Source of the DNA: Aulosira sp. ZfuVER01
GTDB lineage: Bacteria; Cyanobacteriota; Cyanobacteriia; Cyanobacteriales; Nostocaceae
Assembly (NCBI GenBank): GCA_034530615.2
Contig: JAVRCV020000025.1
Coordinates: 128,001-192,000, forward strand
Direction: 5' to 3'
DNA length: 64,000 bases
Below, piece after piece: positions 30,352 to 59,962 of this stretch (positions within the stretch are counted from its first letter, which is position 1; every line of letters starts with the position of its first letter). The position numbers and the translations under genes are program-made. Below the pieces are notes generated by a model. That model was not told the origin of the DNA. It searched no databases and was given only the letters and a program-made list of their open reading frames with translations.

Positions 30352-32544
30352 TTACCTGCGAGTTGTAGCAAGAGATGTCCTTGGTACATCAGATTCTTCG
30401 TTGAAATAGTAGTAACTATGGCTTTCATATTGAGGAATAACTGCGTTTACCACTTGTCCTAAGACATTCTGACCAGATTTTTCTAAAATATCATAAGCCA
30501 TAGCGGCGTTAACAGAATCAACTACTCCAGGACGAACTACAAACAAAACACCATCAGCCATTTGTCCCAATGTAGCTGCATCAGCTGCAACGTTTAATGC
30601 AGGAGCATCAATAATCACAAAATCGTAGTTGGCTGCAAAATTCTGCATTAAGGAAGCCATGCGTTTTGAGTCAAGTAGGGATGCTGGTGAGGGAGGTACG
30701 ACTCCAGCAGTCAAAACATCCAAATTATCCATATTATCCATAACTTTGTTGGTGGCTGTCTTGATTTCAGCCTCTCCCACAATCACATTGCTGAGACCTT
30801 GACTATTAGTTAAGTCCCAAATTAGATGCTGAACTGGACGGTGCAAATCTCCATCTACGAGTAAGACTTTACGTTCCATCTGCGCCATTGCTAAAGCTAA
30901 ATTAGCAGCTATTGTTGACTTACCTTCTCCTGGAACAGAACTGGTAACAACAATCACCTTTAATTCTTTATCAGCACTCATGAACTTTAAGTTTGCCCGC
31001 AACATTCGATAAGCTTCACTAATTGGTGAGCGAGGCATATCTCTTACAACCAGCCTAGAACTATATAGTTCGCCCTCTTCTTGACTTAGAGAACTTAGTC
31101 TAGACTGATTAAACAAAGGAATTACACCCAAAAGAGTAAATCCTAGTAATTCCTTAGCCTCATCAACCGTCTTAATAGATTTATCCCTGAGTTCTAAAAT
31201 ATACATAGTTACTAAAGCAGCCAAAGTAGCTAGTAAGCCTGCACTTAGGTATGAAAACATAGGAGAAAAAAGAGGCTTGTCAGGAACTAGGGCTGCGGAA
31301 ACCAAACTGGCGTTACCTATGTTCTGATTTTCTGCTATTTGGCTCTCTTGTAGTTTTTGTAGCATTAGTAAATAGGTAGATTGGGATGCTTGAACTTTGC
31401 GTTCTAGCTGGCGCTGTTGTTGTTCCAATCTAGGAAGGGTTTGGAGCCGTTGTCTATAGTCTGCTTGTAATTTGGATAAGGTTGCAACTTGATTCATTAA
31501 ACCCAGACGGGTTGACTGTAATCTGACAAGGTCTCCGCTAAGTTGTTGTTGCAGTGCTCCAATCTGTAAATTGCCATTTACTAGTGGTTGATTTGTTCCT
31601 GCAACCTGTTGGATTCGTTGTTGTAGTATCTTTTTTAAGGCTGCTAACCTATCTTGTGAACTAATGATTTCTGGATGGTCATCTCGCAAAACAGTTCGCC
31701 TAGCTGCAAGTTGAGACTCTAGCTGTTGTATTTCTTTAAGAAGATCTTGAACCCCAGAAGATTGGCTAATAGAGGTCATCACTACTGCTCGTTGGGAATT
31801 CATACTCAATTGCTGGCGTAAATCCTCAGACTGAGCATTGATATTGGCAATTTGAGATTTAGAGCCATCAATTTGCTTTTGTAAGTCTGTAACGACTCCT
31901 ATTGCTTGAGTTGCTTCTTCCTGTAAAGAAACAACTTTGTTTCTATCTTTAAAGATTGCTAACTCAGCTTCTGCTTTCCTAACAATTGATTCAGCATTTG
32001 GTAGTTCCTTTTGCAGAAACTGCCGGGCGGATGCTGCTTCTTTGCGCCGAGATGCTACGTTGTGTTCTAAATAAACATCCGTCATCGTATTAACAACCTG
32101 TGCAGCTATTTCAGGGTTGCTATCTTTGTAAGTAATTTGGATGATATCTGAACCTTTAATATCTTTGACAGTAAGATTCTTCAAGAAGTCATTGACATTT
32201 AAGGGCTTCCCTTGCGCATCTTTCAACTCAAGTTTATCTATGGTTTGTTGTGCAAGGGGTGCAGAACGTAGAATTTCTGCCTCTGTATTTAAAGGACTCG
32301 TTTTATTATCTTCTGTTAGTGCTTCTAACTTACCTATCTCTGCACCTACTCCTGTTAATGAAGGGATAGTATTTGTTCTTTGAAGCAATATCTTTGCCTC
32401 TGATTCATAAGTAGGTTTTTTCAAAGATAAAGCCACTACAGAAATCAGAAAAACTGGGACAAAAACTTTGAGGCCAGGTTGCCAACGGCGCTTCAGTATT
32501 TGCCAATATTTATCAAAGGTAAAAAAAGTTGCTTGTGTTTGCAT
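30352..32544 (-). CDS. wzc: Polysaccharide co-polymerase/tyrosine autokinase (Wzc/GumC family)
   Basis: Wzz-like N-terminus with two TMs and coiled coil; EAYRMLRANL; Walker A SSVPGEGKS; DGDLHRP; IIDAP; Tyr-rich tail (YESHSYYY). Confidence 0.93.
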   Translation of the reverse strand: MQTQATFFTFDKYWQILKRRWQPGLKVFVPVFLISVVALSLKKPTYESEAKILLQRTNTIPSLTGVGAEIGKLEALTEDNKTSPLNTEAEILRSAPLAQQTIDKLELKDAQGKPLNVNDFLKNLTVKDIKGSDIIQITYKDSNPEIAAQVVNTMTDVYLEHNVASRRKEAASARQFLQKELPNAESIVRKAEAELAIFKDRNKVVSLQEEATQAIGVVTDLQKQIDGSKSQIANINAQSEDLRQQLSMNSQRAVVMTSISQSSGVQDLLKEIQQLESQLAARRTVLRDDHPEIISSQDRLAALKKILQQRIQQVAGTNQPLVNGNLQIGALQQQLSGDLVRLQSTRLGLMNQVATLSKLQADYRQRLQTLPRLEQQQRQLERKVQASQSTYLLMLQKLQESQIAENQNIGNASLVSAALVPDKPLFSPMFSYLSAGLLATLAALVTMYILELRDKSIKTVDEAKELLGFTLLGVIPLFNQSRLSSLSQEEGELYSSRLVVRDMPRSPISEAYRMLRANLKFMSADKELKVIVVTSSVPGEGKSTIAANLALAMAQMERKVLLVDGDLHRPVQHLIWDLTNSQGLSNVIVGEAEIKTATNKVMDNMDNLDVLTAGVVPPSPASLLDSKRMASLMQNFAANYDFVIIDAPALNVAADAATLGQMADGVLFVVRPGVVDSVNAAMAYDILEKSGQNVLGQVVNAVIPQYESHSYYYFNEESDVPRTSLATTRR

Positions 32545-32646: not shown

Positions 32647-33807
32647 TCAAATCTGTTTAGTCAGATGAGTTTTTCTAGCGCTATAGTGAATTGCGGCGAT
32701 CGCTTCAATTACCCGAGCTAAGTCTTCGCCTGTAAGATTAGATCCAGAAGGCAAGCACAAGCCACGTGAGAATAAATCTACCGCTACAGCATCGCCAATA
32801 TATTCACAACCAGCAAACACAGGCTGTAGATGTAAGGGTTTCCATACTGGACGCGCTTCAATTTGCTTTTCGACCAGTGCTAATCTGACTTGTTCTCGAT
32901 CTGCACCAAATTTCTGAGGATCTATCGTTAAGCAGGTTAACCAGCGAGTAGCACGGCCAAAGCTAGCTTCTGGCATAAATTCTATTCCCGGAAGATGTGC
33001 TAAAGCCTGTTGATAAATCTCAAAGTTACGTCGTCTAGCAGCCACTCGCTCGCTCAGAACTTGTAATTGACCGCGACCAATACCTGCCAAAACATTGCTG
33101 AGGCGGTAGTTATAACCTATTTCTGAGTGTTGATAATGGGGAGCCGGATCGCGGGCTTGAGTTGCTAGAAAGCGGGCTTTTTTGACTAAATCTGGGTCAT
33201 CTGACACTAACATCCCGCCGCCAGATGTGGTGATGATTTTATTGCCGTTGAAGGAGTAAATCCCAATTTTCCCAAAAGTTCCCGGAGTTTGGCCTTTATA
33301 GGTAGCACCTAAAGCTTCCGCCGCATCTTCAATTAAAGGAATTTCATAGCGATCGCAAGCTTTGAGAATCGGCTCGATATCTGCACTTTGCCCGTATAAA
33401 TGTACCAGCACGACTGCTTTGGGTAATTTGCCAATGCGAGTGCGGTGTTCTAAGGCTTCTTGCAACAAATCGGGATTCATGTTCCAAGAAGTGCGATCGC
33501 TATCGATAAAGACTGGTTTTGCACCCAAATAAGTAATCGGATTAGCGCTAGCAGCAAACGTCAAGGTCGAACAAAAAACATCATCCCCATAGCCAACACC
33601 AACTAATTGCAAAGCTAAATGCAGTGCTGCGGTTCCAGAACTGACGGCGGCTGCATGGCCTGCACCGACTACTTGACAAAATTCTTGTTCAAAAGCATCT
33701 ACATGAGGGCCTACAGGGGCGATCCAGTTAGTTTCAAAGGCTTGTTTGACGAATTCTAGTTCGCGATCGCCCATGTGGGGAGTTGAAAGAAGAATTTGTT
33801 TAGTCAC
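32647..33807 (-). CDS. DegT/DnrJ/EryC1/StrS aminotransferase (PglE/EpsN-like)
   Basis: SSGTAALHL, IEDAAEALG, SFNGNKIITTSGGG (PLP lysine), GYNYRLSN, LCLPSG. Confidence 0.93.
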   Translation of the reverse strand: MTKQILLSTPHMGDRELEFVKQAFETNWIAPVGPHVDAFEQEFCQVVGAGHAAAVSSGTAALHLALQLVGVGYGDDVFCSTLTFAASANPITYLGAKPVFIDSDRTSWNMNPDLLQEALEHRTRIGKLPKAVVLVHLYGQSADIEPILKACDRYEIPLIEDAAEALGATYKGQTPGTFGKIGIYSFNGNKIITTSGGGMLVSDDPDLVKKARFLATQARDPAPHYQHSEIGYNYRLSNVLAGIGRGQLQVLSERVAARRRNFEIYQQALAHLPGIEFMPEASFGRATRWLTCLTIDPQKFGADREQVRLALVEKQIEARPVWKPLHLQPVFAGCEYIGDAVAVDLFSRGLCLPSGSNLTGEDLARVIEAIAAIHYSARKTHLTKQI

Positions 33808-33882: not shown

Positions 33883-34503
33883 CTAAGAAACTTCTCTAAT
33901 CACTCGGGCAGGCACTCCTGCGACGATGGTTTTGGGTGGAACATCTTTCCTGGCTATTGCCCCCGCACCAACAGTAGACCAAGCTCCAACGCGAACACCA
34001 GGAAACACAACGCTACCCAGTGCCAGAAATGCACCCTCTTCAGCAGCTGCACCCCCTGCTAGATGGGACACAGCTATATGTACATAATCTCCGACAAAGC
34101 AGTCATGATCGACGCTTGCCTTAGTATTAAGAATTACATGAGAACCAATTTGCGCATAAGGCTGGACTATTGCACCAGCACAAACAACTGTACCTACACC
34201 TAATGAAACTTCCGGGTGAACCCAAGCAAACGGATGAACCACGGTCATCCACTCAAAATCGAGCTTTTCTGCTAGATGCTTGCGTACTGCGTTAGATCCT
34301 ATGCCCAGGATTGCATGAGAGCAGCTTTGAGAGGTCAACTCACTTACTGCTCCAATAACGGGGATGTTAAAAATCTGGCTACCCCACGTTGTTGGGTTAT
34401 CGTCATAAAAACCTACTACCTTGTGTCCCGCAGCAATCAGCGTACTTGCTACAACTTTGGCATGACCTCCCGCTCCAATTACCCCTATTCTTGAGTTACT
34501 CAT
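33883..34503 (-). CDS. Sugar N/O-acetyltransferase, PglD/NeuD family (left-handed beta-helix)
   Basis: GAGGHAKVV, hexapeptide repeats, VDHDC, VGAGA...GVPARV; start at MSNSR (34503). Confidence 0.9.
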   Translation of the reverse strand: MSNSRIGVIGAGGHAKVVASTLIAAGHKVVGFYDDNPTTWGSQIFNIPVIGAVSELTSQSCSHAILGIGSNAVRKHLAEKLDFEWMTVVHPFAWVHPEVSLGVGTVVCAGAIVQPYAQIGSHVILNTKASVDHDCFVGDYVHIAVSHLAGGAAAEEGAFLALGSVVFPGVRVGAWSTVGAGAIARKDVPPKTIVAGVPARVIREVS

Positions 34504-35194
34504 ATACTTTTTTCTTTTTGCTCCTAGTTGCTGCATTACTTGAGAACAAATTTTCTTATAGCGGCGATTACGATCTTCGCTCTTACTTTAGATAGATATT
34601 TACCAGAATTTTGTAGTTTTGATATTTCTCTATTCAATAAAATTGAATGAGTTTTCTCATTTTCTCTTCATCATATTGATCTGAAGGCTGAACTACAGCC
34701 ATACTAGATTCTCTGCAATTGCCAGGGGTTCCCCAAATAGTGTTACTTCTTCAATTTCAGGCAGATGTCTCGATCGAGACGATGCTTAAGATTATTTATT
34801 GCAGAAAACCTACTATATAAGCTGCATTAGCTGCCAGCGTACCGATGATTTATTGGAGTTTAGATTCTGTTTTGCAGTTTTTTCAATAATTATAAATTGA
34901 TAGGGGATATTATGAAAATTCTTAAAGAATCATATATGTCCCCTATCAAATTTATCATAGTGCTGTTCAGAATCATTAAAAAAAACTTACTGATGACTCA
35001 TTTACTATTAAAAATTAGACTCCTTCAATCATTACCATTGATGATACACACATGTAATTTTTTACTCTCTAGAGTAGCATTTTATGGACTATGGCTGCTA
35101 AGAGTGAAATTTTATGGTTAGTATTTGGTTACTAATAGCCTCAGCAGCCGTGGCAACAAAGCTCTTGTGCGTATTTGAGCTATATGCCTTGGTC

Positions 35195-38100
35195 TTAAAT
35201 GGCAAGATGCGTTTGTCTTGGTATCAGCTCTAATAGATTATTAGGAGCAGCTTGCTCAATTTGAAACTTCTCAATCTCCTGGGCAATTCCCGGTACGGTG
35301 GGAGATCGGAACAAGCTAATCAAGGGTAAGTTGACATTAAACGCCGATCGCAATTCCGCAATTAATGTGACTGCAACTAGGGAATTGCCCCCCAAATCAA
35401 AGAAGTTGTCTGTAGTTCTCACTTCCGAGACTTGAAGCACTTTCTGCCAGATTTCAATTAGGGTTTGCTCAATTTGGTTTTGAGGTGTTGTTGTCTTCAA
35501 AGCCTCGTCATCCTGGCGTACCATGATGGGAGCAGGCAATGCCTTGCGGTCAACTTTATTGTTGGGGGTAAGTGGAAATGCTTCCAAGAAGACGAAGTTA
35601 GAGGGCACCATATACTCCGGCAATTGGGAGAGTAAATATTCTCGCAAGTTGGCATTGGCGGTTTGATTCCCTGGTTGTGGGAGTAGATAGGCGACAAGGC
35701 GCTTGTCTCCAGGCACATCTTCACGAACCACAATCACGGCTTCCCGGACTGCCTCGTGTCGGCTTAAAATCGTCTCAATTTCTCCCAGTTCAATCCGATA
35801 ACCCCGCACTTTTACCTGAAAGTCCATGCGTCCCAGAAACTCCACATTGCCATCCATGCGGTAAAGAGCCAAGTCTCCAGTACGGTAAAGGCGTTCTTGG
35901 GGATTCGTGCTGAAGGGGCTGGGGATAAACCTCTCCTGGGTTAACTCCGGTCTGTTGAGATAGCCGCGAGTCACTCCTTTACCACCGATGAGTAGTTCAC
36001 CTGCTACCCCAATGGGAACAGGTTGCTGGTTCTTATCCAGGATATATAATTCGGTGTTGGCGATCGCTTTCCCAATGGGAACCACCCCATTCACTTCGGC
36101 CAGGGTATGGGTTGCAGACCAGATGGTGGTTTCTGTGGGGCCGTACATATTATGAACTTGCCCGGGAATAATCTGTTGGAGTTGGTTGGCTAGGGCTTCG
36201 GTAAAGGCTTCACCGCCAACCATCATGGTATGGATCTGTCCGATTGCCTCTCTCGTCGTGCTATCGGCAATCAGCATACTAGCCATTGATGGGGTGCATT
36301 GCAGATGAGTAACTTGATGCCGCTTGATGAGTGCAGCTACAGAGTTATCTTGTGTCTGTGCTTGATTTGCGATTTGGCCATTGGCTTGTGCTTTCAACTG
36401 ATTCAGCAGTGGCAATTGCGCTAATACTTTTTCTGTCTCCACGCCATAATCAATTAGACAGGCAATTTCATCGACATCAATGCCTTTGATGCGATCGACC
36501 ATCTGCAAACAGGTTTCAACTGTGCCAAACAAACCGCTGGTTTCAAAGTAGCGTTCAAAGGAGAAGTCCAACACCTCATCCATATCTTGCTCAGACAGAT
36601 GAGATACGGAAAATTGACCGTTGTTGTTGGTAGTCTTCTGCTTGAAGGTAGGGAATGACCAAGCTGCTTTTTTAATCAGATCGAGGGAACTGCCCAGGTA
36701 ATGCCGCATCGGCTGACGGACAATCTCTTTGACTGTATCATTATTTTCCCCGACGAAAGTGTGCAGCATCAGGCTGACAGTTCCCTTGCCGGGATGACCA
36801 TTTTCTGTCCATGCTTGCCGATAAATGGCAATTTTGGCGGCTAACTCCTCAAGACTTTGTCCTAGCAGGTGGGTCAAAATATGATAGCCTTTGGCTCCTG
36901 CCATTTGGAATGTTTCCGGATTGCCCGCCGCTGTCACCCAAACTGGGAGTTCGGGTTGAATGGGACGAGGAAGTGTCTGCACTGCCACAATTTCTCCCTT
37001 ACCGTTGGGATAGTTGACAGTTTCCCCACGCCAGAGTGCCCTGACCTCCTCAATTTGCTTGAACATGATGTCTTTCCGGTTCCCAAAGGTTTCCGGGCGC
37101 AGCACAAAGTCATTGGGTTGCCAACCAGCAGCGAAGGAGATACCAACTCGACCGCCGGAGAAGTTGTCTACTACAGACCAATCTTCGGCAATGCGTACTG
37201 AGCTATGTAATGGAGAAACACAACTACCAGCGCGCAGCTGAATCTGGTTGGTGACTGTGGCGATCGCCGCGTTGGTTAGGGCTGGGTTTGGGAATAAGCC
37301 ACCAAAGGCATGGAAGTGGCGTTCGGGAGTCCAGATGGCTTTAAATCCATTGGTATCAGCAAACTTGCTACCTTCAAATAACAGACGATACTTTGCGGCG
37401 GCATCTTCTCCTTGTTCGTGGCTGGAGAAGTAAAACAAACTAAAATCTACAGTTTTTGATTCATTTTGCAGCTTTAGCGTTGGCGAAGTAGAGCGAGCGC
37501 GTTCTTCCTTGGCATTATAGATGACAACCTTAAATCCTCGTGCCAGAGTCCAGAAGAGTTCCAGTACGGAAATATCGAAGGATAAACTGGTGACAGCCAA
37601 CCATACTCCTGGTGGGTCGTGGGCAATTACACTATCCATCCCGGTAAAGAAATTGACCACATTGCCATGCTCTACCATTACCCCCTTAGGCTTGCCAGTC
37701 GAGCCGGAAGTGTAGATGATGTAGCTCAAATTCTCAGGTTTGACCCCACTCTTGGGATTGGTGGTTGGTTGTTGGGCAATTTCTCCCCACATTGTATCTA
37801 TGGGAATGATGCGGGCATCATGTTCAACAACTAAATTGGGAATCAACTTCTGCTGCGTCACAATGACTGGAGTTTGAGAATCTTGCAGCATGAAGGCCAG
37901 CCGATCTTGGGGAAAATCAGGATCGAGGGGCAGATATGCTCCGCCTGCTTTGTGGATTGCCAGTAAAGCGACCATCATTTGGTGCGATCGCTCTATGTGC
38001 AGACCTACCAGGACATCGGGGCCAACTCCACACAGCCGCAGATAGTGGGCTAGTTGATTGGCTTGTGCATTCAATTCGCGGTAGGTGAGTTGGCGATCGG

Positions 38101-39868
38101 CAAAAGCAATAGCGATCGCGTCCGGCGTACGGGCTACTTGCTGCTCAAATAGCTCATGAATACAGAGCTCGCTAGGGAAGGGTTGTGCTGTCTGGTTCCA
38201 CTCCAGCAAAATTTGCTGCTGTTCGGCAACCGAAAGTAGTGGGAGTTGCTCTAAAGATTGTTCGGGATGCTCTATGCACGCAGCGATTAAACTCTGAAGT
38301 TGCTGGACAATCGCACCACTGTAAAACTCATTAATGGCCCCAGTATGTACCAATTCTGGTAGGCTACCATCTTCGTAAGCAACGAAGGCAATGGATGCAT
38401 TGAGATGCTGCCAATCCAGTTGATCGGGACTTGGCGCTAGAGCGATCGCTACTGGCAGAAAATTATGGCGATCGTCATCTTGTAGTTCTGGATAACGTCT
38501 CAAGAGGCTATTTCTAAAGCTACCCAGCCGCGATGTCCGCTTTAGATCTGCTTCTAGGCGTTCTTGGAATTGATTGAATGTCTCCTCCGCCTTCACGTGA
38601 ATGCGGATCGGCACTCGTTGGGCAAATATTTCTGGGGCAATGCTTCGCTGTGCGTTAGTTTGCAGCCCCAAGTCAAATTCTGGCTCTGTTGTTAGTCGCG
38701 CACAGTAGGTGGCAAACATCGTTAACAGAGATTTCGGCTCTACCTGTTGAGTTGGCAGCGAGATGGAATAACGTTGCAGCGAACTATCTACCATTTGACT
38801 AGATAGTTCAACTGGTAAATAAGGATGCTGAAACGGAGCTAATTTCATCAACCGTTCTGCCCATACCGACTCATGACGACAAATGGCCGCATTCCGCTTG
38901 GTAATTGCATCTCTGGTTTCGGCATCAATTATAGGTAAAACATTCCCGACTTGCACGCCATAGTCTTCGATCAAGCTGTCTTCAGAAAGGTCTTTGCCAT
39001 TTAAAGTAGTTAAATTACTCAACTGCACAGCACCATCTACGGTGGCAACATACAGCCCATCTGCATCGAGTTTCAGCACCTGTCCGGGAATGCCGTGGGA
39101 AGTTTTGATTAAACGAGCAGATCCTACAGCAACCACTCCTCCTGGCAACCAGATTTTGGGCAGACCTAGTTGGTTGCGAACTGGCCCAAACTCTAGTGCC
39201 CTTACCAAGTTACAAATATCTTTGCTATTGACATCAAATGATATCAGTGCGGCTGAAGGTGGGCGATGGCTGGGGCCAAAATAACTCCGTTGAGATAGAT
39301 CTTGGGAGTAAGGCTGTACCAGATCCATTGTTAGTTCCGTTAACAGTTCCGCAAAAGAGCTGACGGCGGCATCGAAACAGCGAGTATTCAGATTAAATAC
39401 GGTATCATCTGCTAAAATTGGCACTTCTTTCTGTTTGAAGATGCGCCCCCCATCAATTTCGCAGGTAACTTCATGCCAGGTAACAGCATGATTAGTTTCA
39501 CCATTTAGTAAAGCCCAAGAAGTTGCATACAAACCGGCATACTTTGGCAATGGTGAGTCGTGGTAGTTAATGGTTGCTTTGCGTGCCTTGGCAATAACGT
39601 CAGCTGGTACGATCCACTTGACGTTATTAATGCTGAAAAGATAATCGTACTCGCTACCCAAAAGCTGTTCTTGAAAAATAGATCGAGAAGCCGCGTGGTT
39701 GATGCCATGTTCCTCAGCCCACTTTTGTAAGGAATTATCTGTTGAATAAACTCCCAGCACTTGGCAACCTTTCTGTAACAGGATTTCCAAGCAACTTAAT
39801 GGCAAAGCACCATCACCGACTACAAAACAGGAAAAGCTGGAGATTGGTATTTCTTTCACCAAGTTCAT
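35195..39868 (-). CDS. Stand-alone NRPS-like protein: formyltransferase - truncated condensation domain - adenylation domain interrupted by a luciferase-like (MupA/Atu3671-type) monooxygenase - PCP
   Basis: Formyltransferase INYHDSPLPKYAG, TWH, DGG; A-domain cores LTYREL, YTSGSTGKPKG, FDISV, NMYGPTE, GELLIGG, YRTGD, GRMDFQVKVRGYRIELGEIE, NNKVDR; LLM insert FSLFYF...WTPERHFHAFGG...PNP between A4 and A5; PCP FFDLGGNSL; no thioesterase. Confidence 0.92.
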   Translation of the reverse strand: MNLVKEIPISSFSCFVVGDGALPLSCLEILLQKGCQVLGVYSTDNSLQKWAEEHGINHAASRSIFQEQLLGSEYDYLFSINNVKWIVPADVIAKARKATINYHDSPLPKYAGLYATSWALLNGETNHAVTWHEVTCEIDGGRIFKQKEVPILADDTVFNLNTRCFDAAVSSFAELLTELTMDLVQPYSQDLSQRSYFGPSHRPPSAALISFDVNSKDICNLVRALEFGPVRNQLGLPKIWLPGGVVAVGSARLIKTSHGIPGQVLKLDADGLYVATVDGAVQLSNLTTLNGKDLSEDSLIEDYGVQVGNVLPIIDAETRDAITKRNAAICRHESVWAERLMKLAPFQHPYLPVELSSQMVDSSLQRYSISLPTQQVEPKSLLTMFATYCARLTTEPEFDLGLQTNAQRSIAPEIFAQRVPIRIHVKAEETFNQFQERLEADLKRTSRLGSFRNSLLRRYPELQDDDRHNFLPVAIALAPSPDQLDWQHLNASIAFVAYEDGSLPELVHTGAINEFYSGAIVQQLQSLIAACIEHPEQSLEQLPLLSVAEQQQILLEWNQTAQPFPSELCIHELFEQQVARTPDAIAIAFADRQLTYRELNAQANQLAHYLRLCGVGPDVLVGLHIERSHQMMVALLAIHKAGGAYLPLDPDFPQDRLAFMLQDSQTPVIVTQQKLIPNLVVEHDARIIPIDTMWGEIAQQPTTNPKSGVKPENLSYIIYTSGSTGKPKGVMVEHGNVVNFFTGMDSVIAHDPPGVWLAVTSLSFDISVLELFWTLARGFKVVIYNAKEERARSTSPTLKLQNESKTVDFSLFYFSSHEQGEDAAAKYRLLFEGSKFADTNGFKAIWTPERHFHAFGGLFPNPALTNAAIATVTNQIQLRAGSCVSPLHSSVRIAEDWSVVDNFSGGRVGISFAAGWQPNDFVLRPETFGNRKDIMFKQIEEVRALWRGETVNYPNGKGEIVAVQTLPRPIQPELPVWVTAAGNPETFQMAGAKGYHILTHLLGQSLEELAAKIAIYRQAWTENGHPGKGTVSLMLHTFVGENNDTVKEIVRQPMRHYLGSSLDLIKKAAWSFPTFKQKTTNNNGQFSVSHLSEQDMDEVLDFSFERYFETSGLFGTVETCLQMVDRIKGIDVDEIACLIDYGVETEKVLAQLPLLNQLKAQANGQIANQAQTQDNSVAALIKRHQVTHLQCTPSMASMLIADSTTREAIGQIHTMMVGGEAFTEALANQLQQIIPGQVHNMYGPTETTIWSATHTLAEVNGVVPIGKAIANTELYILDKNQQPVPIGVAGELLIGGKGVTRGYLNRPELTQERFIPSPFSTNPQERLYRTGDLALYRMDGNVEFLGRMDFQVKVRGYRIELGEIETILSRHEAVREAVIVVREDVPGDKRLVAYLLPQPGNQTANANLREYLLSQLPEYMVPSNFVFLEAFPLTPNNKVDRKALPAPIMVRQDDEALKTTTPQNQIEQTLIEIWQKVLQVSEVRTTDNFFDLGGNSLVAVTLIAELRSAFNVNLPLISLFRSPTVPGIAQEIEKFQIEQAAPNNLLELIPRQTHLAI

Positions 39869-39995: not shown

Positions 39996-41123
39996 TTATG
40001 CCAATATGTATTGCCGAATGCGATCGGCAATTTTTTGGCTAGCACTGTCAGCTGCCACTAGTTCAATCTGTTCTGAGGTAGACACCCCTAAACCCAATTC
40101 CACTGCTTTGCGAATCTGTTCTAACTGCCAAATAGATCCTTGCGTCACTCGATCTGTTGTTCCCAGAGAGCGCAACATTCCCAAAGCAACGACATCAATG
40201 GCTATCCGATCTGTACTTGCCAGAATCACATTTGCAGCAACCTTTTTCCCAGAATCCGGCCCTCCGTCTACAAAGGCTTCGACACCATCCATTAACACCA
40301 GAGTAGGCTGATAGACGGCATTGATTTCCGCGATCATCGGTTGCATGTGCGAGGAAGTATGGAGATCGCGCATATAGTTAAATGGATCGCCGGGAACATA
40401 CTTCGCTACCATGCCTACAGTATTTTTCAGGGACAAGGTATAATGCGCTCCCCGATGAGTTTTCAGACAACAGGTATTGACAACTGCTTCTGCCTCTAGA
40501 ACTGGCCGCGCAAAGGCGAAACCTTCCTTCCAGTGGGTTCCTTTTGCGGAAAAGTATTGCCACTGCTCGGTAGACAGCTCATCAAACACGATCGCCTCTA
40601 GCCCATAGCGATCTGCCAGTTGAAACACTCCTTTGAGTTCCATTGCTTGACGGGTGTTTGCCATGCCGGCGCGATCGCCCACAGTAATTTTCCCAGCGCC
40701 AGCATTTTGTAGCTCTTGCACCAAGGCTTCTAACATTTTGCTATCTGTGGCTGCCGGAGCTGGATCGGCAGTATTAAAGTTAGGCTTGAGGAAAACTTTT
40801 TTTCCCTGAATACCGCTTGGCTGCAACAAGTCAAGAGCGCGGCGGGTTCCAGATACCCGATCTTCACTGTGGACTATGACAACTTTCCTAATGCCAGTAG
40901 GTTGTGGTAAGGGCACTACTCTCATGGCATCGGTTTGCTTTGCATGAGCAGCATCCAGAATCGATCCAGATGTTTTCAGCGTGTGAATAACGGAGCTAGG
41001 AGAAAAACCAGATGTTTTCAGGTTGGAAAAAATATAGGGAGAAATTACTGCTCCCGCTGTCAGTCCAGCCAAGCGAAGGAAATTACGCCTTTTTTGTTTG
41101 AGATTGAGAGAGTGAATATGCAT
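39996..41123 (-). CDS. DUF362 domain protein with twin-arginine signal
   Basis: KRRNFLRLAG Tat motif; LKPNFN, CLKTH, TLSLKN.VG, GGP, D..AID motifs. Confidence 0.82.
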   Translation of the reverse strand: MHIHSLNLKQKRRNFLRLAGLTAGAVISPYIFSNLKTSGFSPSSVIHTLKTSGSILDAAHAKQTDAMRVVPLPQPTGIRKVVIVHSEDRVSGTRRALDLLQPSGIQGKKVFLKPNFNTADPAPAATDSKMLEALVQELQNAGAGKITVGDRAGMANTRQAMELKGVFQLADRYGLEAIVFDELSTEQWQYFSAKGTHWKEGFAFARPVLEAEAVVNTCCLKTHRGAHYTLSLKNTVGMVAKYVPGDPFNYMRDLHTSSHMQPMIAEINAVYQPTLVLMDGVEAFVDGGPDSGKKVAANVILASTDRIAIDVVALGMLRSLGTTDRVTQGSIWQLEQIRKAVELGLGVSTSEQIELVAADSASQKIADRIRQYILA

Positions 41124-41376: not shown

Positions 41377-42033
41377 TTAAATGCGTATGAAATTGCTTGG
41401 CACGTCAAACTTTGCAGTTTCTCCTGGAGAGTAGACTGCCCGATCTTCTGTATGACTAAGAACGATCGCGCCTGCACCAATAATATTTTCTTTACCGATA
41501 TTAATATAATTGCGGATAGTAGCATTCAAACCAATAAAAGTATATTCTCCTATGGTTGCTCCACCACCAATCACGACATCAGAGGTTAGAAAGCAATGAT
41601 CCTCGATCGTACAGTGATGACCGATATGATTTGCTCCTAAGAGCAGACAGTTGTTGCCAATCGAAGAGAAAGGTTGAATAATGCTATGTTCAAGAATGAA
41701 GGAGTTTTCGCCCAATTGCGTACCGTGATAAGATGCTTTAGAACTGATGTATGAAATACAGCTATAGCCACGCTTTTTGGCATTAAAATATTTTTCTGCT
41801 CGTAATTTGTTGACATTTTTATAACTAATTGCAATGAACAATTTGTACTCAGAAGGTGGATAATACTTCTCAAGTTTCTCATAAGGGACAAGTGGTAGAC
41901 CATTGAAGCTCTCTGCTTGAAGGTAAGCTTCATCAACAGTAAATCCAACTACCTCATGTTCAGAATCATGTTTGAGATAGTAGTGAACTATTTCTGCAAT
42001 CTCACTAGTTCCAAAAATAACAACTTGCGCCAT
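41377..42033 (-). CDS. Acetyl/acyltransferase, NeuD/PglD family (left-handed beta-helix)
   Basis: VIFGTS, IQPF..IGNN, HIGHH..IEDHCF, IGAGA; start at MAQVV (42033). Confidence 0.88.
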   Translation of the reverse strand: MAQVVIFGTSEIAEIVHYYLKHDSEHEVVGFTVDEAYLQAESFNGLPLVPYEKLEKYYPPSEYKLFIAISYKNVNKLRAEKYFNAKKRGYSCISYISSKASYHGTQLGENSFILEHSIIQPFSSIGNNCLLLGANHIGHHCTIEDHCFLTSDVVIGGGATIGEYTFIGLNATIRNYINIGKENIIGAGAIVLSHTEDRAVYSPGETAKFDVPSNFIRI

Positions 42034-42047: not shown

Positions 42048-43061
42048 CTACTGTTGATGAACGATTAAGCGATCGCACTTGGAACTTATAACGTTAGCTG
42101 CGAACATCTGCCAACTTGGCTCTGGTTCTACACCATTAGCCCAAGCTATTAACATTGCTGGCAGATTTGCTCCAGCACAATGTGAAAATGGATATCCTCC
42201 ACCAAAGCGGGGGTTCATTTCTAGAACATAGCAACCTCTAGAATTGACAATTACATCACAGTCAAGATTGCCAATATGACTGAGTTTACGGGCTATTTCT
42301 TGACCAATATTTTGAAGTTTTTGCTCTGCGACTGTGACTGCGCGATCGGTCTCTCCCGCACGCATACCCAGTTTACGTTTCACAAAAGTTGTCACATATT
42401 CGCCATCCAAATTATTAATGATATCTAGACCGTATTCTTCACCTAATACTCGCTCTTGGATTAGAATACAATTCTCGATATCACATGCACTAACATCCGC
42501 GAGAATTGTGCGACATATTTTTTTCTGTACATACCGATATGCTAATTCTAATTCTTCATCATCTTCGGGATATTCAATTCCAATTGAGGCGCTTCCCCAG
42601 CGAGGTTTGACTACTAAAGGAAAAGTTATTTCTCCTTGTTGAATAGCTTCTTGTACTGCTCTGACAGAAAGATAAGTTTTTGGAGAAGAAAGACCGATAT
42701 TCTCTAAAAATTGAAATGTGGCAAACTTATCAAAACAGATATTGATAACTTCTGGAGAGGAAACAACTGGAATAGTGCCGATTGTCAGAAAGCGATCGCG
42801 TTGTTCTGCTAGGTACGGTAATTCTAAATCGTTCAACGGAATTAACAAGCGTACCTGTTTTTGCTGACAGATATCCAACAAGTTATCGAAATAATCGCTG
42901 TGATGGATAGGCGGTAACAAAAAATATTCATCTGCTTCTTGTAACGCTGGTGCTTCCAGATTAGAATCAGTAGCAAACACTTGTCCTCGATTTCCTAGCG
43001 CTTCTTGGAAGAATTTCACTAGATAGTTGCGTCTTCCCGCACAAGTCAATATGACATTCAT
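42048..43061 (-). CDS. ATP-grasp ligase (carbamoyl-phosphate synthase-like/PylC-like)
   Basis: TCAGRR, CFDK, VKPRWGSAS, IQE...EY, LEMNPRFGGGYP. Confidence 0.9.
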   Translation of the reverse strand: MNVILTCAGRRNYLVKFFQEALGNRGQVFATDSNLEAPALQEADEYFLLPPIHHSDYFDNLLDICQQKQVRLLIPLNDLELPYLAEQRDRFLTIGTIPVVSSPEVINICFDKFATFQFLENIGLSSPKTYLSVRAVQEAIQQGEITFPLVVKPRWGSASIGIEYPEDDEELELAYRYVQKKICRTILADVSACDIENCILIQERVLGEEYGLDIINNLDGEYVTTFVKRKLGMRAGETDRAVTVAEQKLQNIGQEIARKLSHIGNLDCDVIVNSRGCYVLEMNPRFGGGYPFSHCAGANLPAMLIAWANGVEPEPSWQMFAANVISSKCDRLIVHQQ

Positions 43062-43076
43062 ATCAGGTTTTACCTC

Positions 43077-44315
43077 TTAGAGGACATAAGTAGAAAACAC
43101 ATCCTGAGAAGTTTCTCGCCGTCTGATTAGTGTGTACTCGTCCTGGATATAGTCGTAGCTAATAATGGGGGGATTGGGGCGAATAAATGGTGGTTTAAAG
43201 ACGACAGTATAAGCACCCATATTCTCAAAAACTATATAATCTCCTATACCTATTTCCCCAGGATATTCTTTGTATAAACAATCATGTTCCATACAAGTAT
43301 ATCCAACTATATCGATACTTCCTGAGAGTTTTTTGTGGTTGGTAATTTCTTCATTTTTGTAAACTTTTAAAGACAGAGTTTTATCAGTTCCGGTTGGTTT
43401 GATGTTGTGAATACTACCCACTACTAGAGCAATTTGGCGCGATCGCACTGTTTTTAAACCTACAACTTTAGCTGCAAATTTCAACACATCGGAAACTACA
43501 GCTACTCCTGGCTCAATAATCAGTTCTGGGACAGAATTGGGATATCTACTTTTTAATTGTGGTGCAACTGCTGCGGCGTATTCCTGATAATTAGGAATAT
43601 AAAAATCAAATTGATTTCTTAAATCGTCAGTCATCTTGCCAAAGAAACCACCACCGATATCAAGAAATCTTGGCTGTTTATCCTGGAAATAATAATCAGT
43701 TAATTCCAAAATTTTCTGAGTACGGCGAGAGTATGATTCGGTGCTTCTTTCGGATGTAGAAATGTGGCAATGTAGTCCAGCAACAGTACAATTATTTAAT
43801 TGTGTCAAGGTTTTGAATGCGCGATCGAGTTCGCCTGCTTCGACATCAAAGCCAAATCGAGATATCCGGCTGTTCCCGATATCAAAATTACACCTCAATC
43901 CTACAGCTATGTTCTGTTCTGGTAATCTTTTTGCCAAAGCTGTAACTATTTCAACTTCTTCTAAACAATCCAAGTTGACTATAGAACCAGCCAAGATGGC
44001 TTTTTCGATATCTTGCTGATGCTTCAGCGGGCCATTAAAAATAATTCTGGTTGGTGGTACGCCGATCGCGATCGCTAAATCATACTCCATTTGGGAAACA
44101 ACTTCGGCATACCCTCCCATAGAATGCACTGTTTGGCATATCTTGGGAATATAGTTAGTTTTGTAAGAATATCCCAAGTTGGTATTGGGATAAATTGAAC
44201 GGAAACTCTGGAGAAACTCTTTATAGTTATGTTCAAATTGTCTGAGATCCAGAATAAAAAAAGAATCTCCGTATTCTTTTTCTAAGTGATGCAGTGTTTG
44301 CCAAGAAAGTGCCAT
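43077..44315 (-). CDS. PLP-dependent fold-type III decarboxylase (LysA/BtrK-like)
   Basis: YSYKTN (PLP lysine), FNGPLK, SRFG, GLHCH, DIGGGF, IEPG, CMEHD, GAYT. Confidence 0.9.
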   Translation of the reverse strand: MALSWQTLHHLEKEYGDSFFILDLRQFEHNYKEFLQSFRSIYPNTNLGYSYKTNYIPKICQTVHSMGGYAEVVSQMEYDLAIAIGVPPTRIIFNGPLKHQQDIEKAILAGSIVNLDCLEEVEIVTALAKRLPEQNIAVGLRCNFDIGNSRISRFGFDVEAGELDRAFKTLTQLNNCTVAGLHCHISTSERSTESYSRRTQKILELTDYYFQDKQPRFLDIGGGFFGKMTDDLRNQFDFYIPNYQEYAAAVAPQLKSRYPNSVPELIIEPGVAVVSDVLKFAAKVVGLKTVRSRQIALVVGSIHNIKPTGTDKTLSLKVYKNEEITNHKKLSGSIDIVGYTCMEHDCLYKEYPGEIGIGDYIVFENMGAYTVVFKPPFIRPNPPIISYDYIQDEYTLIRRRETSQDVFSTYVL

Positions 44316-44381
44316 TTTTTAACTGTTTTTTACTAAAGACAACCCATCTTCATCAAAAGCATCCAGCGAAATCTTTGGCTT

Positions 44382-45407
44382 TTATACAGTTGCCATACTC
44401 TTGATTTCCTCCAGAGCATCAAACTTTGCTGCCATGAAGTTTGGTCGAACTTTCAGCCAATTTGGATCGGCTTCTTTACCACTTGCCCAAGCAATTAGTG
44501 CGGCGGGTAGATTAGCTCCTGCTTGATGAGAAAAAGGATAGCCTCCACCCAAACGCGGATTCATATCTATGACAAAACAACCGTCTGCTGTTACAATTAC
44601 ATCGCAGTCGAGGCTACTAATATGACCAAGCTGCTGACCAATAGATGCACCTAAATCTTTTAACCGTTTATCATCAACTACGATCGCAGCATCTGTACTA
44701 CCAGCTAGCATAGAAAGCTTACGTTTAGCAAAAGTAGTTATATAAGAACCTGTTAAGTTATTAATGATATCAAGACTGTACTCTTGTCCATACAGCTTTT
44801 CTTGAATGAGAACGCATCTTTGAGGATCTTTTGCACTTACGTCTGCCAAGGATGTGCCAAAAATAAGCTTTTTAGCAAACTGATAGGCCATCTCCATTTC
44901 CTCATCGTCCTGAACGGAGAAAATACCAACTGAAGCACTTCCCCACCGAGGTTTAATAACTAAAGGGAATTTAATCTCTCCTTGGCTAAGTGCTTGCCGT
45001 GCGTCTGACAATGAAATATAGGTTTTTGGGACTGAAATACCCCAGTTTGTTAATAATTCAAAGGTTGCCCACTTGTCAAAGCAAGTATCGATTACTTCTG
45101 GAGATGAAATGACTGGAAAAGTCCCAACTTCGAGAAAGCGATCGCGCTGTCTTGCCAACAAGGGAAGTTCGAGATCGAGCAAAGGAATTAACAGACGTAC
45201 CTGATGTTGCTTACATATATTGACAATTATGTCAAAATAATCGCTATGTTTAACAGACGGTACAACAAAACCCTTGTCAGCTTTTTGTAGTGCTGCTGCA
45301 TTGGGATTAGCATCACAAGCCAGCACATATCCATTTTTAGCAAGTGCATCTTTGAAAAAGTTAATTAAGTCAATCCGACGACCGGCACAGGTAATTACGA
45401 TATTCAT
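44382..45407 (-). CDS. ATP-grasp ligase, paralog of 42048-43061
   Basis: TCAGRR, CFDK, IKPRWGSAS, IDMNPRLGGGYPFSH. Confidence 0.9.
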   Translation of the reverse strand: MNIVITCAGRRIDLINFFKDALAKNGYVLACDANPNAAALQKADKGFVVPSVKHSDYFDIIVNICKQHQVRLLIPLLDLELPLLARQRDRFLEVGTFPVISSPEVIDTCFDKWATFELLTNWGISVPKTYISLSDARQALSQGEIKFPLVIKPRWGSASVGIFSVQDDEEMEMAYQFAKKLIFGTSLADVSAKDPQRCVLIQEKLYGQEYSLDIINNLTGSYITTFAKRKLSMLAGSTDAAIVVDDKRLKDLGASIGQQLGHISSLDCDVIVTADGCFVIDMNPRLGGGYPFSHQAGANLPAALIAWASGKEADPNWLKVRPNFMAAKFDALEEIKSMATV

Positions 45408-45645: not shown

Positions 45646-46314
45646 CTAATTGCCCAGAAACTCTTCCATAGTGTCATGATTAGCTTGGCTAATCCCTTCT
45701 TTTTTAACTACTTTCCATGCCGTCAGGAAAAGTATTTTCAGGTCAAGCCACCAACTCCAATTATCGACATACCAAACATCTAGTTTAAATTTTTCTGGCC
45801 AAGAAATAGAATTGCGACCGTTAACTTGTGCCCAACCAGTAATCCCCGGCTTGACTTCATGACGGCGTGCTTGTTCAGGAGTGTAGCGCTCCAGATACCT
45901 GACCATTAAAGGACGCGGGCCAACGAAACTCATATCACCCTTGAGAACATTCCACAGTTGGGGAAGTTCATCCAAACTCGTTTTGCGCAGAAATTTACCG
46001 AAAGATGTTAGGCGTTTTGCATCAGGCAGAAGATTACCCTTGGCATCGCGCTCATCGGTCATAGTGCGAAACTTATAGAATTTGAAAATACGTCCGTTTT
46101 TACCAGGACGGGGTTGGGCGAAAATCACTGGACTACCCATACGGTAATAAATAGCGATCGCCACAAGCAACAGTACAGGAAAACATAAAATTAAAGCGAT
46201 CGCAGCTATGAACCTATCTAATATAGATTTGATTAATCTGCTTTGTTTGTTAGGGCAATTGCCATAAAATTTTTGAGTTTTCATAGATGTATCCACAGAT
46301 TGAAGATTTGTCAT
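45646..46314 (-). CDS. Undecaprenyl-phosphate sugar phosphotransferase (PglC/EpsL-like priming enzyme)
   Basis: [49 protein letters not shown]; exact start uncertain. Confidence 0.93.
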
Positions 46315-46401
46315 AACGCACGAGTCCAAAAAATTTCACAAAAACCACTATTTTTACTGCCTTGTATCTTTTGCGTAGCTGTTGTCTGAGCCAAGTCATA
46401 A

Positions 46402-47619
46402 TTACCTGGCTTCTTTCAGATTGGAAATCGGTTTGGGAACGGCCAACCCTTTCTCTAATAAAAGTCGTACATACTCTTGATAAAGCGCATCCCAAATCCT
46501 TTCTTGGTTAAAGCTCTGCACAACGCGAGAGTGCCCTGCTTGACCATGTTGCTGGCGTAACTCTTGGCTATTCAAATACATCCGAATTGCTGCTGTTAAT
46601 GCCTCTACATTACGCGGTGGTACTAGTGTTCCTGTGATGCCATCTTGTACAGCATCTATACAGCCTGGAATGGCTGTAGCTACAACTGGTAATTGCATTG
46701 CTGCCCCTTCTAAAGGTGTGTTTGGAAATCCCTCCCGATATGTTGGTAAGGTCAAGATATCCATAGCAGCATAGAAGGCTGGTGTATTGTTGCTGTCTCC
46801 AGTCAGATGGATGCGAGCATCGCTCTTCAGCCACTCTTCTACGTCTGACGGTACTGGATCTTGGGGTTCAAACGAACCAACCATTAGTAGATGGAGATTA
46901 GGAAATTCGTCCCTTAAGATTTTCCAGGCGTTGACCAATTCTGTAATGCCTTTATCACGAACGATACGACCAACAAAGCCAACTACTAAAGCATCAATAG
47001 GAATTCCGTATTTTTGGCGCGTTGCGTGACCGACATCTGCACCTACACGTATAGGATTAAATCGCTCTTTAGTATCTACACCATTGCTACTGCCTTCGAG
47101 CAAGACTTTGATTTTGCTTGGCGGGCAAAGATTTTCCGACACTGCTACTTCTCGTAGGGAATGGCTGACACAAAATACTTGGTGAGCCAACAGGCAAGAT
47201 ATTTTTTCGCTCCACCACAGCAGCCAGCGTTTGAAGCCCTTAGCAGTCATCAAAGGCAAGCCGCGCATCAAGTAAATCCGAATCGGTGAGCCTGCTAACC
47301 ATGAACTAACTATTCCCAACAGCCCTCCTTTAGGAGTGCTGGCATGAACTACCTGCGGGCGAATGTGACGCAAACACTGCCAGAGATGGAAAATGGCTAC
47401 TAAGTCTTGTAAGGGGGTAATTCGCCGAGGCATATCAACGGCGTATACCGTCACTTGTTCGCGTTCCGCAAATTTATGCAAGGCTTTTCCGGGAGAAGAT
47501 AGAGCATGTACTTCAAAGCCTTGCTGTTTCATATATCCAACCTGACCACTCAAGAAGCTAAGTGTTTCTGGTACGGTTGTGATGTAAAGCAGTTTTAATG
47601 CTGGTGCATAGTCAGGCAT
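46402..47619 (-). CDS. Glycosyltransferase family 4 (PglA-like)
   Basis: HASTPKGGLLG, GRIVRDKG, PTYREGFP..PLE, DGITG.LV. Confidence 0.92.
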   Translation of the reverse strand: MPDYAPALKLLYITTVPETLSFLSGQVGYMKQQGFEVHALSSPGKALHKFAEREQVTVYAVDMPRRITPLQDLVAIFHLWQCLRHIRPQVVHASTPKGGLLGIVSSWLAGSPIRIYLMRGLPLMTAKGFKRWLLWWSEKISCLLAHQVFCVSHSLREVAVSENLCPPSKIKVLLEGSSNGVDTKERFNPIRVGADVGHATRQKYGIPIDALVVGFVGRIVRDKGITELVNAWKILRDEFPNLHLLMVGSFEPQDPVPSDVEEWLKSDARIHLTGDSNNTPAFYAAMDILTLPTYREGFPNTPLEGAAMQLPVVATAIPGCIDAVQDGITGTLVPPRNVEALTAAIRMYLNSQELRQQHGQAGHSRVVQSFNQERIWDALYQEYVRLLLEKGLAVPKPISNLKEAR

Positions 47620-47654
47620 ATATTTGGGTTACTATTTATGTGGAAATTTAGCTG

Positions 47655-48665
47655 TTAGATTTGGTAGTAAGACCGATACCAAGCGACAAATCGCTCAACC
47701 CCATCTTCAATTGAAGTGCTAGGCTTAAATCCCACATCTTTTACTAAATCATCTACATCTGCATAAGTCGCAGGAACATCACCTAGTTGAATTGGTAACA
47801 TCTTCTTTTCAGCTTGTTTTCCTAAACAGCTTTCCAAGACTTCAATCAAGTGCATTAACTCCACTGGTTGATTGTTACCAATGTTGTAAATTTTATAGGG
47901 AGCTTTGCTAGTACCTGGGTCGGGAGCGTCTCCAGACCAGTTAGGATTTGCTTGGGGAATATTATCTGCTACACGAATCACACCTTCTACAATGTCATCA
48001 ATGTAGGTAAAGTCGCGTCGCATTTTGCCATAGTTAAAAACATCTATGGGTTGGCCTGCTAAAATCGCTTGGGTAAATATAAACAGCGCCATGTCTGGGC
48101 GACCCCACGGGCCGTAAACAGTAAAGAAACGCAACCCAGTTGTCGGCAAACCATATAAATGGCTGTAGGAGTGAGCCATCAGTTCGTTAGCTTTTTTAGT
48201 GACAGCATACAGACTGACGGGGTGATCTACATTGTCGTGAACAGAAAAGGGCATTTTGGTATTAGCACCATAGACAGAACTAGAAGATGCAAATACCAGG
48301 TGTTGTACGCCTGAGTGGCGACAACCTTCCAAAATGTTGATAAAGCCAACGAGGTTGCTGTCTACATAAGCATGGGGATTTTTCAGGGAGTAACGCACAC
48401 CAGCCTGAGCTGCTAGGTTGATGACAACATCAAATTTTTGCTGTGTAAATAATTGGGCTATGCCTTGGCGATCTGCTAAGTCTAGTTGATGAAAACTAAA
48501 ACCTGGTTTTCCCTCTAGCTGGGCTAAACGGTCTTTCTTGAGAAAGACATCGTAGTAATCATTCAGGTTATCTAACCCAACAACTTCGTCTCCTCTATTT
48601 AGCAAGCGTTGGCACACATGAAAGCCAATAAAGCCAGCAGCACCAGTAACTAAAAATCTGACCAT
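47655..48665 (-). CDS. NAD-dependent epimerase (UDP-glucuronate 4-epimerase-like)
   Basis: [42 protein letters not shown]. Confidence 0.93.
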
Positions 48666-48674
48666 AAGATTTTC

Positions 48675-49955: not shown

Positions 49956-50129
49956 ATATTTCCTCACAAATCACTAAGTTATTTAACATTTTTCATAAAT
50001 GAAAAATGTATTACAAAAAAATTAAAGTATGATTGAAATTGCCTTGGGCACTGCGCCAATCAAAATCTAGAAACCACTCAAATATTCATTTCTATTCAGA
50101 GTGGACTATTATAAAAATGAGCTAATCGC

Positions 50130-50354
50130 CTACTTCCTCTGCATCAAAGGAATATCAGTTCTTGACCGCGCCAGATGATTGCGTTGATATTCTGGCTGTA
50201 AACAAAAGCGCCAATAGTCATTTCCATCATCACTAACGTCAAAGAGACGATGGTGTAAAACTGCCTCAGCACCGTCAAGGCTACAAATAACACCAGTAAT
50301 ATCCTGAAATACTTCTAAGATTAATATGTCTTCATTCGTGGTAGATGCTTGCAT
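50130..50354 (-). CDS. Small hypothetical protein
   Basis: 74 aa ORF co-oriented with the cluster, AAGGA upstream; no motif recognised. Confidence 0.35.
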   Translation of the reverse strand: MQASTTNEDILILEVFQDITGVICSLDGAEAVLHHRLFDVSDDGNDYWRFCLQPEYQRNHLARSRTDIPLMQRK

Positions 50355-52384: not shown

Positions 52385-52473
52385 TTTAAATTATCCTAAT
52401 GATGCTTCAAGAAACTAGAATCAGTAAAAATGTTGTAAAAAGGTTTATTTTTATAAGTTGCTAATTTTTTCAG

Positions 52474-54423: not shown

Positions 54424-54488
54424 ACTTGGTTTACCTCTTTTGTAATTACAACTACTTAAGTTTCTGTTAGCAAAGTTAGAAATATTGT

Positions 54489-59940: not shown

Positions 59941-59962
59941 AATTTATTCCTAATAAAAAATA

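Follow-up and report, generated by a model that had tools for sequence, protein, structure and literature searches.

We analysed a 64,000-nucleotide stretch of the genome of Aulosira sp. ZfuVER01 (contig JAVRCV020000025.1, positions 128,001 to 192,000; hereafter the window), in which one gene encodes a single-module nonribosomal peptide synthetase (NRPS) of 1557 residues. The gene lies within a co-oriented Wzy-type exopolysaccharide cluster with PglF-, DegT-, PglD-, and PglC-like genes (Table 1). The NRPS is composed of a formyltransferase (F) domain, half of a condensation (C) domain, an adenylation (A) domain split by a luciferase-like monooxygenase, and a peptidyl carrier protein (PCP), and a hexapeptide acyltransferase is encoded nearby. 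Judged from its sequence and gene context, the system may provide an N-formyl-2-hydroxyglycyl group that this acyltransferase would attach to an exopolysaccharide amino sugar, a possibility to which we give a little less than an even chance.

The reading frame of the NRPS was intact with all motifs kept, and its domain architecture was above the chance level. A Pfam scan returned the architecture described in an earlier sequence-only reading of the gene, with Formyl_trans_N at residues 86-172, Formyl_trans_C at 206-299, AMP-binding in two parts, Bac_luciferase at 809-1126, AMP-binding_C at 1363-1438, and PP-binding at 1468-1531, the PCP serine being S1496 in the motif LGGNSL. That reading had also placed a luciferase-like monooxygenase of about 350 residues between the motifs FDISVLE and NMYGPTE. 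These were located at 764-770 and 1240-1246, and between them TIGR04020 matched residues 809-1159, a 351-residue core, over its full profile (1-341) with 511.7 bits against the NCBIfam cut-off of 244.45. The span from F764 to N1240 was 477 residues, as compared with 93-99 in six of six monooxygenase-less relatives, so that the insert amounts to about 380 residues, including linkers. Two other features named in that reading, the presence of only the C-terminal half of a C domain without HHxxxDG and the lack of a release domain, were likewise confirmed. The half-C region aligned to approximately positions 258-471 of full C domains, past their HHxxxDG at 140-143, this motif was not found anywhere in the 1557 residues, and Condensation gave a weak, sub-threshold Pfam match at 415-483 (profile positions 293-362 of 456). 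No thioesterase (TE) was detected by Pfam, the protein ending after the PCP with a 26-residue tail.

Table 1. Features of the NRPS and its surroundings (positions in the window unless a locus is named).
Feature	Position	Strand	Basis
Single-module NRPS, F - half C - A(monooxygenase insert) - PCP, 1557 aa	35195..39868	-	Open reading frame (ORF), Pfam/NCBIfam
Formyltransferase domain, aa 1-312, with Fmt/ArnA-type C-terminal subdomain	38933..39868	-	Pfam, alignment
C-terminal half of condensation domain, aa ~330-560, without HHxxxDG; likely structural	38189..38881	-	
Adenylation domain, N-terminal part, A1-A4	37499..38188	-	FDISVLE, aa 764-770
MupA/Atu3671-family (TIGR04020) luciferase-like monooxygenase, aa 809-1159, between A4 and A5	36392..37444	-	
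Adenylation domain, C-terminal part, A5-A10, including K1438	35534..36361	-	
PCP, aa 1468-1531, S1496, then 26-aa tail without Arg-rich stretch	35276..35467	-	
Wzc-type polysaccharide co-polymerase/tyrosine kinase	30352..32544	-	Pfam, NCBIfam
DegT/PglE-like aminotransferase; likely origin of the nucleoside diphosphate (NDP)-amino sugar acceptor	32647..33807	-	Pfam, NCBIfam
PglD-like sugar N-acetyltransferase	33883..34536	-	Pfam, NCBIfam
DUF362 protein with twin-arginine-like N-terminus	39996..41123	-	Pfam
Hexapeptide (left-handed beta-helix) acyltransferase, 218 aa, PglD/PerB/VioB-like, separate subfamily; proposed offloading enzyme	41377..42033	-	
ATP-grasp, LysA-like decarboxylase, ATP-grasp; probably an independent additional module for acyl decoration	42048..45407	-	
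PglC-like initiating phosphoglycosyltransferase	45646..46329	-	Pfam, NCBIfam
Rest of Wzy-type cluster: five GT4 glycosyltransferases, epimerase, NDP-sugar dehydrogenase, GH123-like, two AsnB-like, Wzy, MurJ-type flippase, FemAB-like GNAT	46402..63994	-	
PglF-like dehydratase, directly beyond the window end	L001:2345-4381		

The specificity code of the A domain was extracted position by position from D765, I766, L769, Q1190, M1216, G1218, M1241, I1249, W1250, and K1438, using what we take to be PheA numbering and the reference glycine code, and the result, DILQMGMIWK, was the glycine-type code given in the sequence-only reading. Across the family, the code was DILQ(M/L/F/Y/I/C)G(M/V/L)(I/V)WK, most of its residues being invariant in all 30 aligned homologues, and it differed in all six monooxygenase-less F-half C-A relatives. 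The best matches of the code-bearing segment in the PDB were 5U89, 8WWW, 8XJZ, and 4ZXH, of which 5U89 and 4ZXH are presumably glycine-activating. The predicted substrate of the A domain is, very likely, glycine. In the F domain, N101, H103, and D139, which we assume to be the Asn-His-Asp triad of formyltransferases, were invariant in the 30 aligned homologues (47-86% identity). Its nearest PDB matches were sugar N-formyltransferases and ArnA (E ~1e-13 to 1e-11), with the F domain of LgrA far behind (E ~4e-4). Formylation on the PCP from 10-formyltetrahydrofolate (10-formyl-THF) is likely, as judged from these residues, and would be chemically sensible because, as we infer, the formyl group would stabilise the otherwise labile 2-hydroxyglycine.

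With regard to oxidation, the solved structure nearest to the insert was the monooxygenase domain of PuwE (6KET, E 2.9e-113), the proposed maker of a 2-hydroxy-acyl chain (PMC4219810). MupA catalyses in vitro the alpha-hydroxylation of a thioester bound to an acyl carrier protein (ACP), with flavin mononucleotide (FMN) and an external reductase (PMC10952193). For MtaG and MelG, hydroxylation of the glycine alpha-carbon is proposed to be followed by cleavage to an amide and an alpha-keto acid (PMC11411415), and for OzmO and CongA the formation of N-formylglycyl-S-PCP is proposed (PMC9057759, PMC4504003). From these precedents, alpha-hydroxylation of N-formylglycyl-S-PCP is the best inference, with real doubt, and the insert would, with reasonable probability, perform it with FMNH2, O2, and an unlinked reductase. 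The doubt arises because MupA requires a beta-keto substrate (PMC10952193), a group that the predicted substrate, formylglycyl-PCP, does not have, and because the alpha-hydroxylation of glycine by MtaG is itself a proposal (PMC11411415). Furthermore, neither a flavin reductase nor a phosphopantetheinyl transferase (PPTase) was present among the cluster ORFs scanned; the sole PPTase match in the source genome was on a different contig, and no second close monooxygenase domain was found in that genome.

The beta-keto caveat would be avoided if the monooxygenase hydroxylated the glycine nitrogen instead, giving an N-formyl-N-hydroxyglycyl unit, a hydroxamate that would make the glycan metal-binding, and N-formyl-N-hydroxy groups are frequent in siderophores. 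Nevertheless, we regard this as very improbable: the characterised or assigned relatives MupA, PuwE, and MtaG all act on the alpha-carbon, and the N-hydroxylases known to us are FAD/NADPH enzymes of another fold. No support for N-hydroxylation by the insert was found, and alpha-hydroxylation is favoured by analogy. Thus, of the oxidised formylglycyl unit in the sequence-only reading, the alpha-hydroxy form is in line with the PuwE structure and the MupA precedent, whereas the N-hydroxy form is not sustained. It is also conceivable, albeit rather unlikely, that both enzymes act as proposed but the hydroxylated intermediate splits with loss of formamide, so that a glyoxylyl (or further oxidised oxamoyl-type) group reaches the sugar. 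The cleavage of an alpha-hydroxyglycine amide proposed for MtaG and MelG (PMC11411415) and the identical position of the insert in those enzymes point in this direction. However, it would be wasteful to spend formyl-THF and then discard formamide, and the formyltransferase triad is invariant. Moreover, alpha-hydroxy-acylglycine units survive in some natural products.

The candidate for offloading, the hexapeptide acyltransferase, aligned over its full length with the NDP-amino-sugar N-acyltransferases PglD, PerB, and VioB and kept the catalytic histidine, which points to an NDP-amino sugar as the acceptor, the donor not being readable from sequence. H139 was invariant in 15 of 15 sequences, TIGR03570 scored 170 bits versus 160.8, and profile matches of the protein to 2NPO, 4EA7, and 7TXP were obtained. 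The protein has an N-terminal nucleotide-sugar domain and a left-handed beta-helix, and its predicted model (predicted local distance difference test score, 73.9) appears to agree with the expected fold. In a phylogenetic tree, its clade was separate from the PglD-like neighbours; nine cyanobacterial acyltransferases formed a clade (99/99), and those of a soil lineage grouped with an enzyme linked to ACP and KSIII genes (100/96). Among 13 distant homologues with neighbours read, six adjoined genes of the ACP-like, KSIII, SDR, or AMP-ligase type (L027, L079-L083), where two ACP-like ORFs and one fused carrier domain matched Pfam PP-binding and the others were called by size and motif; three were beside WbqC-like genes (L072-L074), and four were beside neither. 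The ACP, KSIII, SDR, and AMP-ligase neighbours correspond to the genes that P. syringae requires for 3-hydroxybutyryl-viosamine (PMC3927599). A comparable combination of an aminotransferase, a hexapeptide acyltransferase, and carrier machinery for an unusual N-acyl amino sugar is the viosamine island of P. syringae (VioA, VioB, VioS, VioR, and an ACP), where 3-hydroxybutyryl-viosamine requires the island genes vioA, vioB, and vioR (PMC3927599). Unlike in that island, the carrier here would be the PCP of the NRPS and the acyl group would be derived from glycine. VioB is termed an acetyltransferase (PMC3927599), and ACP-dependent transfer by it is putative.

Taken together, we propose that the stand-alone starter module would load glycine on its PCP, the F domain would formylate the glycine nitrogen, and the monooxygenase would hydroxylate the alpha-carbon to give N-formyl-2-hydroxyglycyl-S-PCP. 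The acyltransferase would then transfer the N-formyl-2-hydroxyglycyl group to the amino function of an NDP-sugar, which would enter the polysaccharide. Offloading of the PCP by this acyltransferase is somewhat probable, and the acceptor is, by a slighter preference, the DegT/PglF product, a 4-amino-4,6-dideoxy-N-acetylhexosamine of the bacillosamine type. That a hexapeptide sugar N-acyltransferase takes the acyl group directly from an NRPS PCP and decorates an amino sugar in a cyanobacterial exopolysaccharide with N-formyl-2-hydroxyglycine can be suggested tentatively, with the balance somewhat on the other side. The likelihoods of the successive steps are not independent of each other. Of the sequence-only reading, glycine loading, N-formylation on the PCP, and offloading in trans are retained as predictions in keeping with sequence and context; the polysaccharide genes, the candidate offloading enzyme, and the wide occurrence of the family are additions to it.

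The linkage between the acyltransferase and the NRPS was evaluated in two samples of cyanobacterial genomes. In the first sample of 401 genomes, 15 matched the F-half C region, eight having a monooxygenase-containing orthologue and seven a monooxygenase-less F-half C-A protein with different codes. Acyltransferase matches occurred in 23 of the 401, with at least 65% identity in eight and 52% or less in the others; these eight were exactly the genomes with the monooxygenase-containing orthologue, and in each of them the acyltransferase lay at most two genes away from the NRPS. The second sample, also of 401 genomes, added eight new orthologues, with the acyltransferase adjacent in three and lacking in five, all of one genus; this out-of-sample result led us to reject the idea that every cyanobacterial orthologue is accompanied by the acyltransferase. 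Over both samples, the acyltransferase was present at 11 of 16 loci and was the only queried neighbour found in all 11 loci of the acyltransferase type. The placement of the NRPS next to the acyltransferase and within a set of polysaccharide genes was kept in three genera, and a 9.9-kb contig (G650) carried the NRPS-acyltransferase pair without the other queried cluster genes. In the soil lineage (L088-L090), in which the NRPS was 46% identical, the acyltransferase came directly after the NRPS, the start and stop codons overlapping in TTGA.

Several results weigh against the proposed pathway. The five of 16 cyanobacterial orthologues without such an acyltransferase nearby have other partners: a C-A-T-nitroreductase NRPS (T, thiolation) lies downstream in four (one fragmented; the contig of the fifth ends inside the gene), a C-T-TE protein lies beside the NRPS in all five, and the starter F domains are 62-64% identical to that of the NRPS. 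Six of the eight acyltransferase-bearing genomes of the first sample belong to one genus, and a PglD-like control gene was likewise present only in NRPS-bearing genomes (six of eight), indicating that the cyanobacterial co-occurrence partly reflects inheritance as a block; exclusive co-occurrence as proof of coupling is weakened accordingly. The soil loci were near-identical to each other with no polysaccharide genes seen, and a single origin of the acyltransferases was not rejected (approximately unbiased test, p = 0.25), so that independent recruitment in soil is not established. A search for a fused NRPS-acyltransferase found none among 942 candidates with E of 1e-20 or lower, which is a weak negative; a hexapeptide domain behind a second module in one protein (P0070) was not counted as support. 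Finally, the three WbqC-linked relatives could be plain acetyl-CoA enzymes.

These WbqC-linked relatives, together with the closeness of the F domain to sugar N-formyltransferases and ArnA and the several other amide-forming enzymes in the cluster, are also compatible with a different division of roles, in which the hexapeptide enzyme is an ordinary acetyl-CoA acetyltransferase. The NRPS would then still decorate the glycan, its PCP being discharged by an ATP-grasp, AsnB-like, or GNAT enzyme, and the F domain may formylate the sugar amine. We consider this unlikely, as the cluster already holds a separate PglD-like acetyltransferase and no alternative discharge enzyme was common to all loci. 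Furthermore, the F-half C unit starts ordinary NRPS lines in which no sugar genes were seen (L035, L037, L044, L046) and also starts copies linked to a polyketide synthase (PKS).

The NRPS represents a PKS-less form within an uncharacterised family of NRPS starters that occurs widely. The best 120 database matches included roughly 50 proteins of nearly full length with 65-86% identity, the named ones being cyanobacterial, and a further tier at ~48-51%; 16 plasmid records covered at least 80% of the NRPS at ~39-45%. We examined 84 loci (80 metagenome, two plasmid, and two genome), the two loci from a separate F-half C search of genome contigs being duplicates of genome-set loci and counted once. 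In 47 of them, F, monooxygenase, and A were in one ORF, and the partner was a nearby PKS in 28, an own TE in two, and a hexapeptide acyltransferase in five, with no partner in 12 (mostly on short contigs). The PKS of the two plasmid loci had one module, of ketosynthase (KS), acyltransferase (AT), ketoreductase (KR), dehydratase (DH), ACP, and TE, adjoining GT2, PPTase, and polysaccharide genes. In contrast, no PKS ketosynthase was present in any of the 16 cyanobacterial locus sets (9.6-84 kb fetched). An Arg-rich tail after the PCP (at least four Arg in 12 residues, a threshold chosen after the tails were seen), which we take to be a docking element, was found in 28 of 28 PKS-linked copies and was absent from all 13 rows with a linked acyltransferase (one of them a duplicate). 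Such a tail was also present in all seven partnerless proteins whose tail was intact, which fits a PKS lying past the contig end. The tail of the NRPS has no Arg-rich stretch, nor is it the acidic tail of the NRPS-paired copies.

It may also be considered that the NRPS starts a small molecule that has nothing to do with the glycan, the gene having been inserted in the cluster or left partnerless, with its product passing to an NRPS or PKS elsewhere. This is compatible with the pairing of the starter with NRPSs in the five genomes of one genus, with the additional NRPS and PKS genes carried by the source genome, with the 658-bp gap after the NRPS gene, and with the GC content of the NRPS and DUF362 genes (0.479, as compared with 0.38-0.41 for the genes directly upstream). 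It is, however, improbable in view of the intact frame and motifs, the tail, which is neither Arg-rich nor acidic, and the conserved place among polysaccharide genes beside the acyltransferase. No elongation module (C or KS) was found downstream within 84 kb around the NRPS, and no ketosynthase on its contig. A promoter and terminator scan gave results at the chance level (16 versus 14.1 and 4 versus 6.9).

With respect to known systems, the sequence-only reading had likened the NRPS to MtaG and MelG of myxothiazol and melithiazol biosynthesis, which have a terminal C-A(monooxygenase)-T-TE layout. The analogy holds for the glycine-type A domain split by a monooxygenase and the proposed alpha-hydroxylation, but it fails for the rest: MtaG possesses an upstream C domain and a TE (PMC11411415), whereas the NRPS is a starter in a polysaccharide context, with F and half-C regions in place of an active C domain and with no TE. 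The F-A-PCP layout is shared with OzmO (oxazolomycin, 1196 aa), CongA (conglobatin), and module 1 of LgrA, glycine being predicted also for OzmO and CongA (PMC9057759, PMC4504003), which are likened here by published description. The NRPS without its 380-residue insert is approximately as long as OzmO, and it differs from all three in having the insert, with no downstream PKS and no OzmP-like gene noted. It works like OzmO plus MtaG and is a member of neither. MupA (mupirocin) and the Ox domain of PuwE (puwainaphycin, 6KET) share the TIGR04020 family with the insert, which, unlike them, is embedded in an A domain and has a predicted N-acylglycyl thioester substrate without the beta-keto group. 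An alphaproteobacterial PKS-GT2-NRPS-PPTase cassette on Ruegeria and Aminobacter plasmids shares the NRPS architecture (43-44% identity over ~1510 positions), the code, and the adjacent polysaccharide genes; in contrast, the NRPS here has no PKS, GT2, or PPTase beside it and no Arg-rich tail and has the hexapeptide acyltransferase instead. A Roseobacter cluster described by Martens et al. in 2007 reportedly contains a cassette of this kind.

Because the PKS-less form comprises two proteins, both soluble, and an NDP-amino sugar of known type, it is directly reconstitutable. The architecture recurs widely among bacteria, in most cases close to PKS and polysaccharide genes, and the two-gene version would be the simplest route to the chemistry of this widespread orphan family. 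The system would also probe whether an A-embedded monooxygenase alpha-hydroxylates an acylglycyl thioester, as hitherto proposed for MtaG, and the pathway, if true, would provide an additional NRPS-to-glycan route for non-carbohydrate substituents on cyanobacterial slime or capsule. In the open-access literature searched, with subscription journals and supplements outside the scope, we found neither N-formyl-2-hydroxyglycine as a substituent nor a paper on the product of this NRPS family or on the NRPS-acyltransferase pairing.

As for other features of these loci, the DUF362 gene was beside the NRPS in six of 16 cyanobacterial loci, in both acyltransferase and NRPS contexts; being present in only these six and apparently exported, its product was set aside as an offloading enzyme or flavin reductase. 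The segment 50756-56231 of the window holds the GH123-like gene and the two AsnB-like genes, one of the latter being highly diverged (580 aa, weak Pfam match). In related clusters (L021, L023, L027, L031, L032), ACP and KSIII genes, some with AMP-ligase and SDR genes, replace the module at 42048-45407, and such swapping suggests interchangeable N-acyl groups on one amino sugar. Within the genus lacking the acyltransferase, four loci (L168, L170, L172, and L173, from G547, G639, G534, and G592) have the starter followed by a C-A-T-nitroreductase NRPS (fragmented in G592) whose C domain bears a DxxxxDxxS heterocyclisation-like motif, and the starter is divergent from a C-T-TE gene without HHxxxDG; this set-up suggests a thiazole or oxazole small molecule. 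One orthologue (L028:1588-7494) has an additional full N-terminal C domain (HHAILDG) ahead of the F domain, a layout that several ~2000-residue database matches with Condensation may share. Two members with their own C-terminal TE (L087, L153) are beside exosortase, GNAT, and glycosyltransferase or deacetylase genes. Lastly, a second case of NRPS genes in a polysaccharide cluster was observed (L039:5706-19260 and L040, G290:C49), in which monooxygenase-less F-half C-A-T-TE, FAAL-KS-AT-ACP-aminotransferase, C-A-T, and C-T-TE genes are placed immediately ahead of wzy, wzx, and glycosyltransferase genes.

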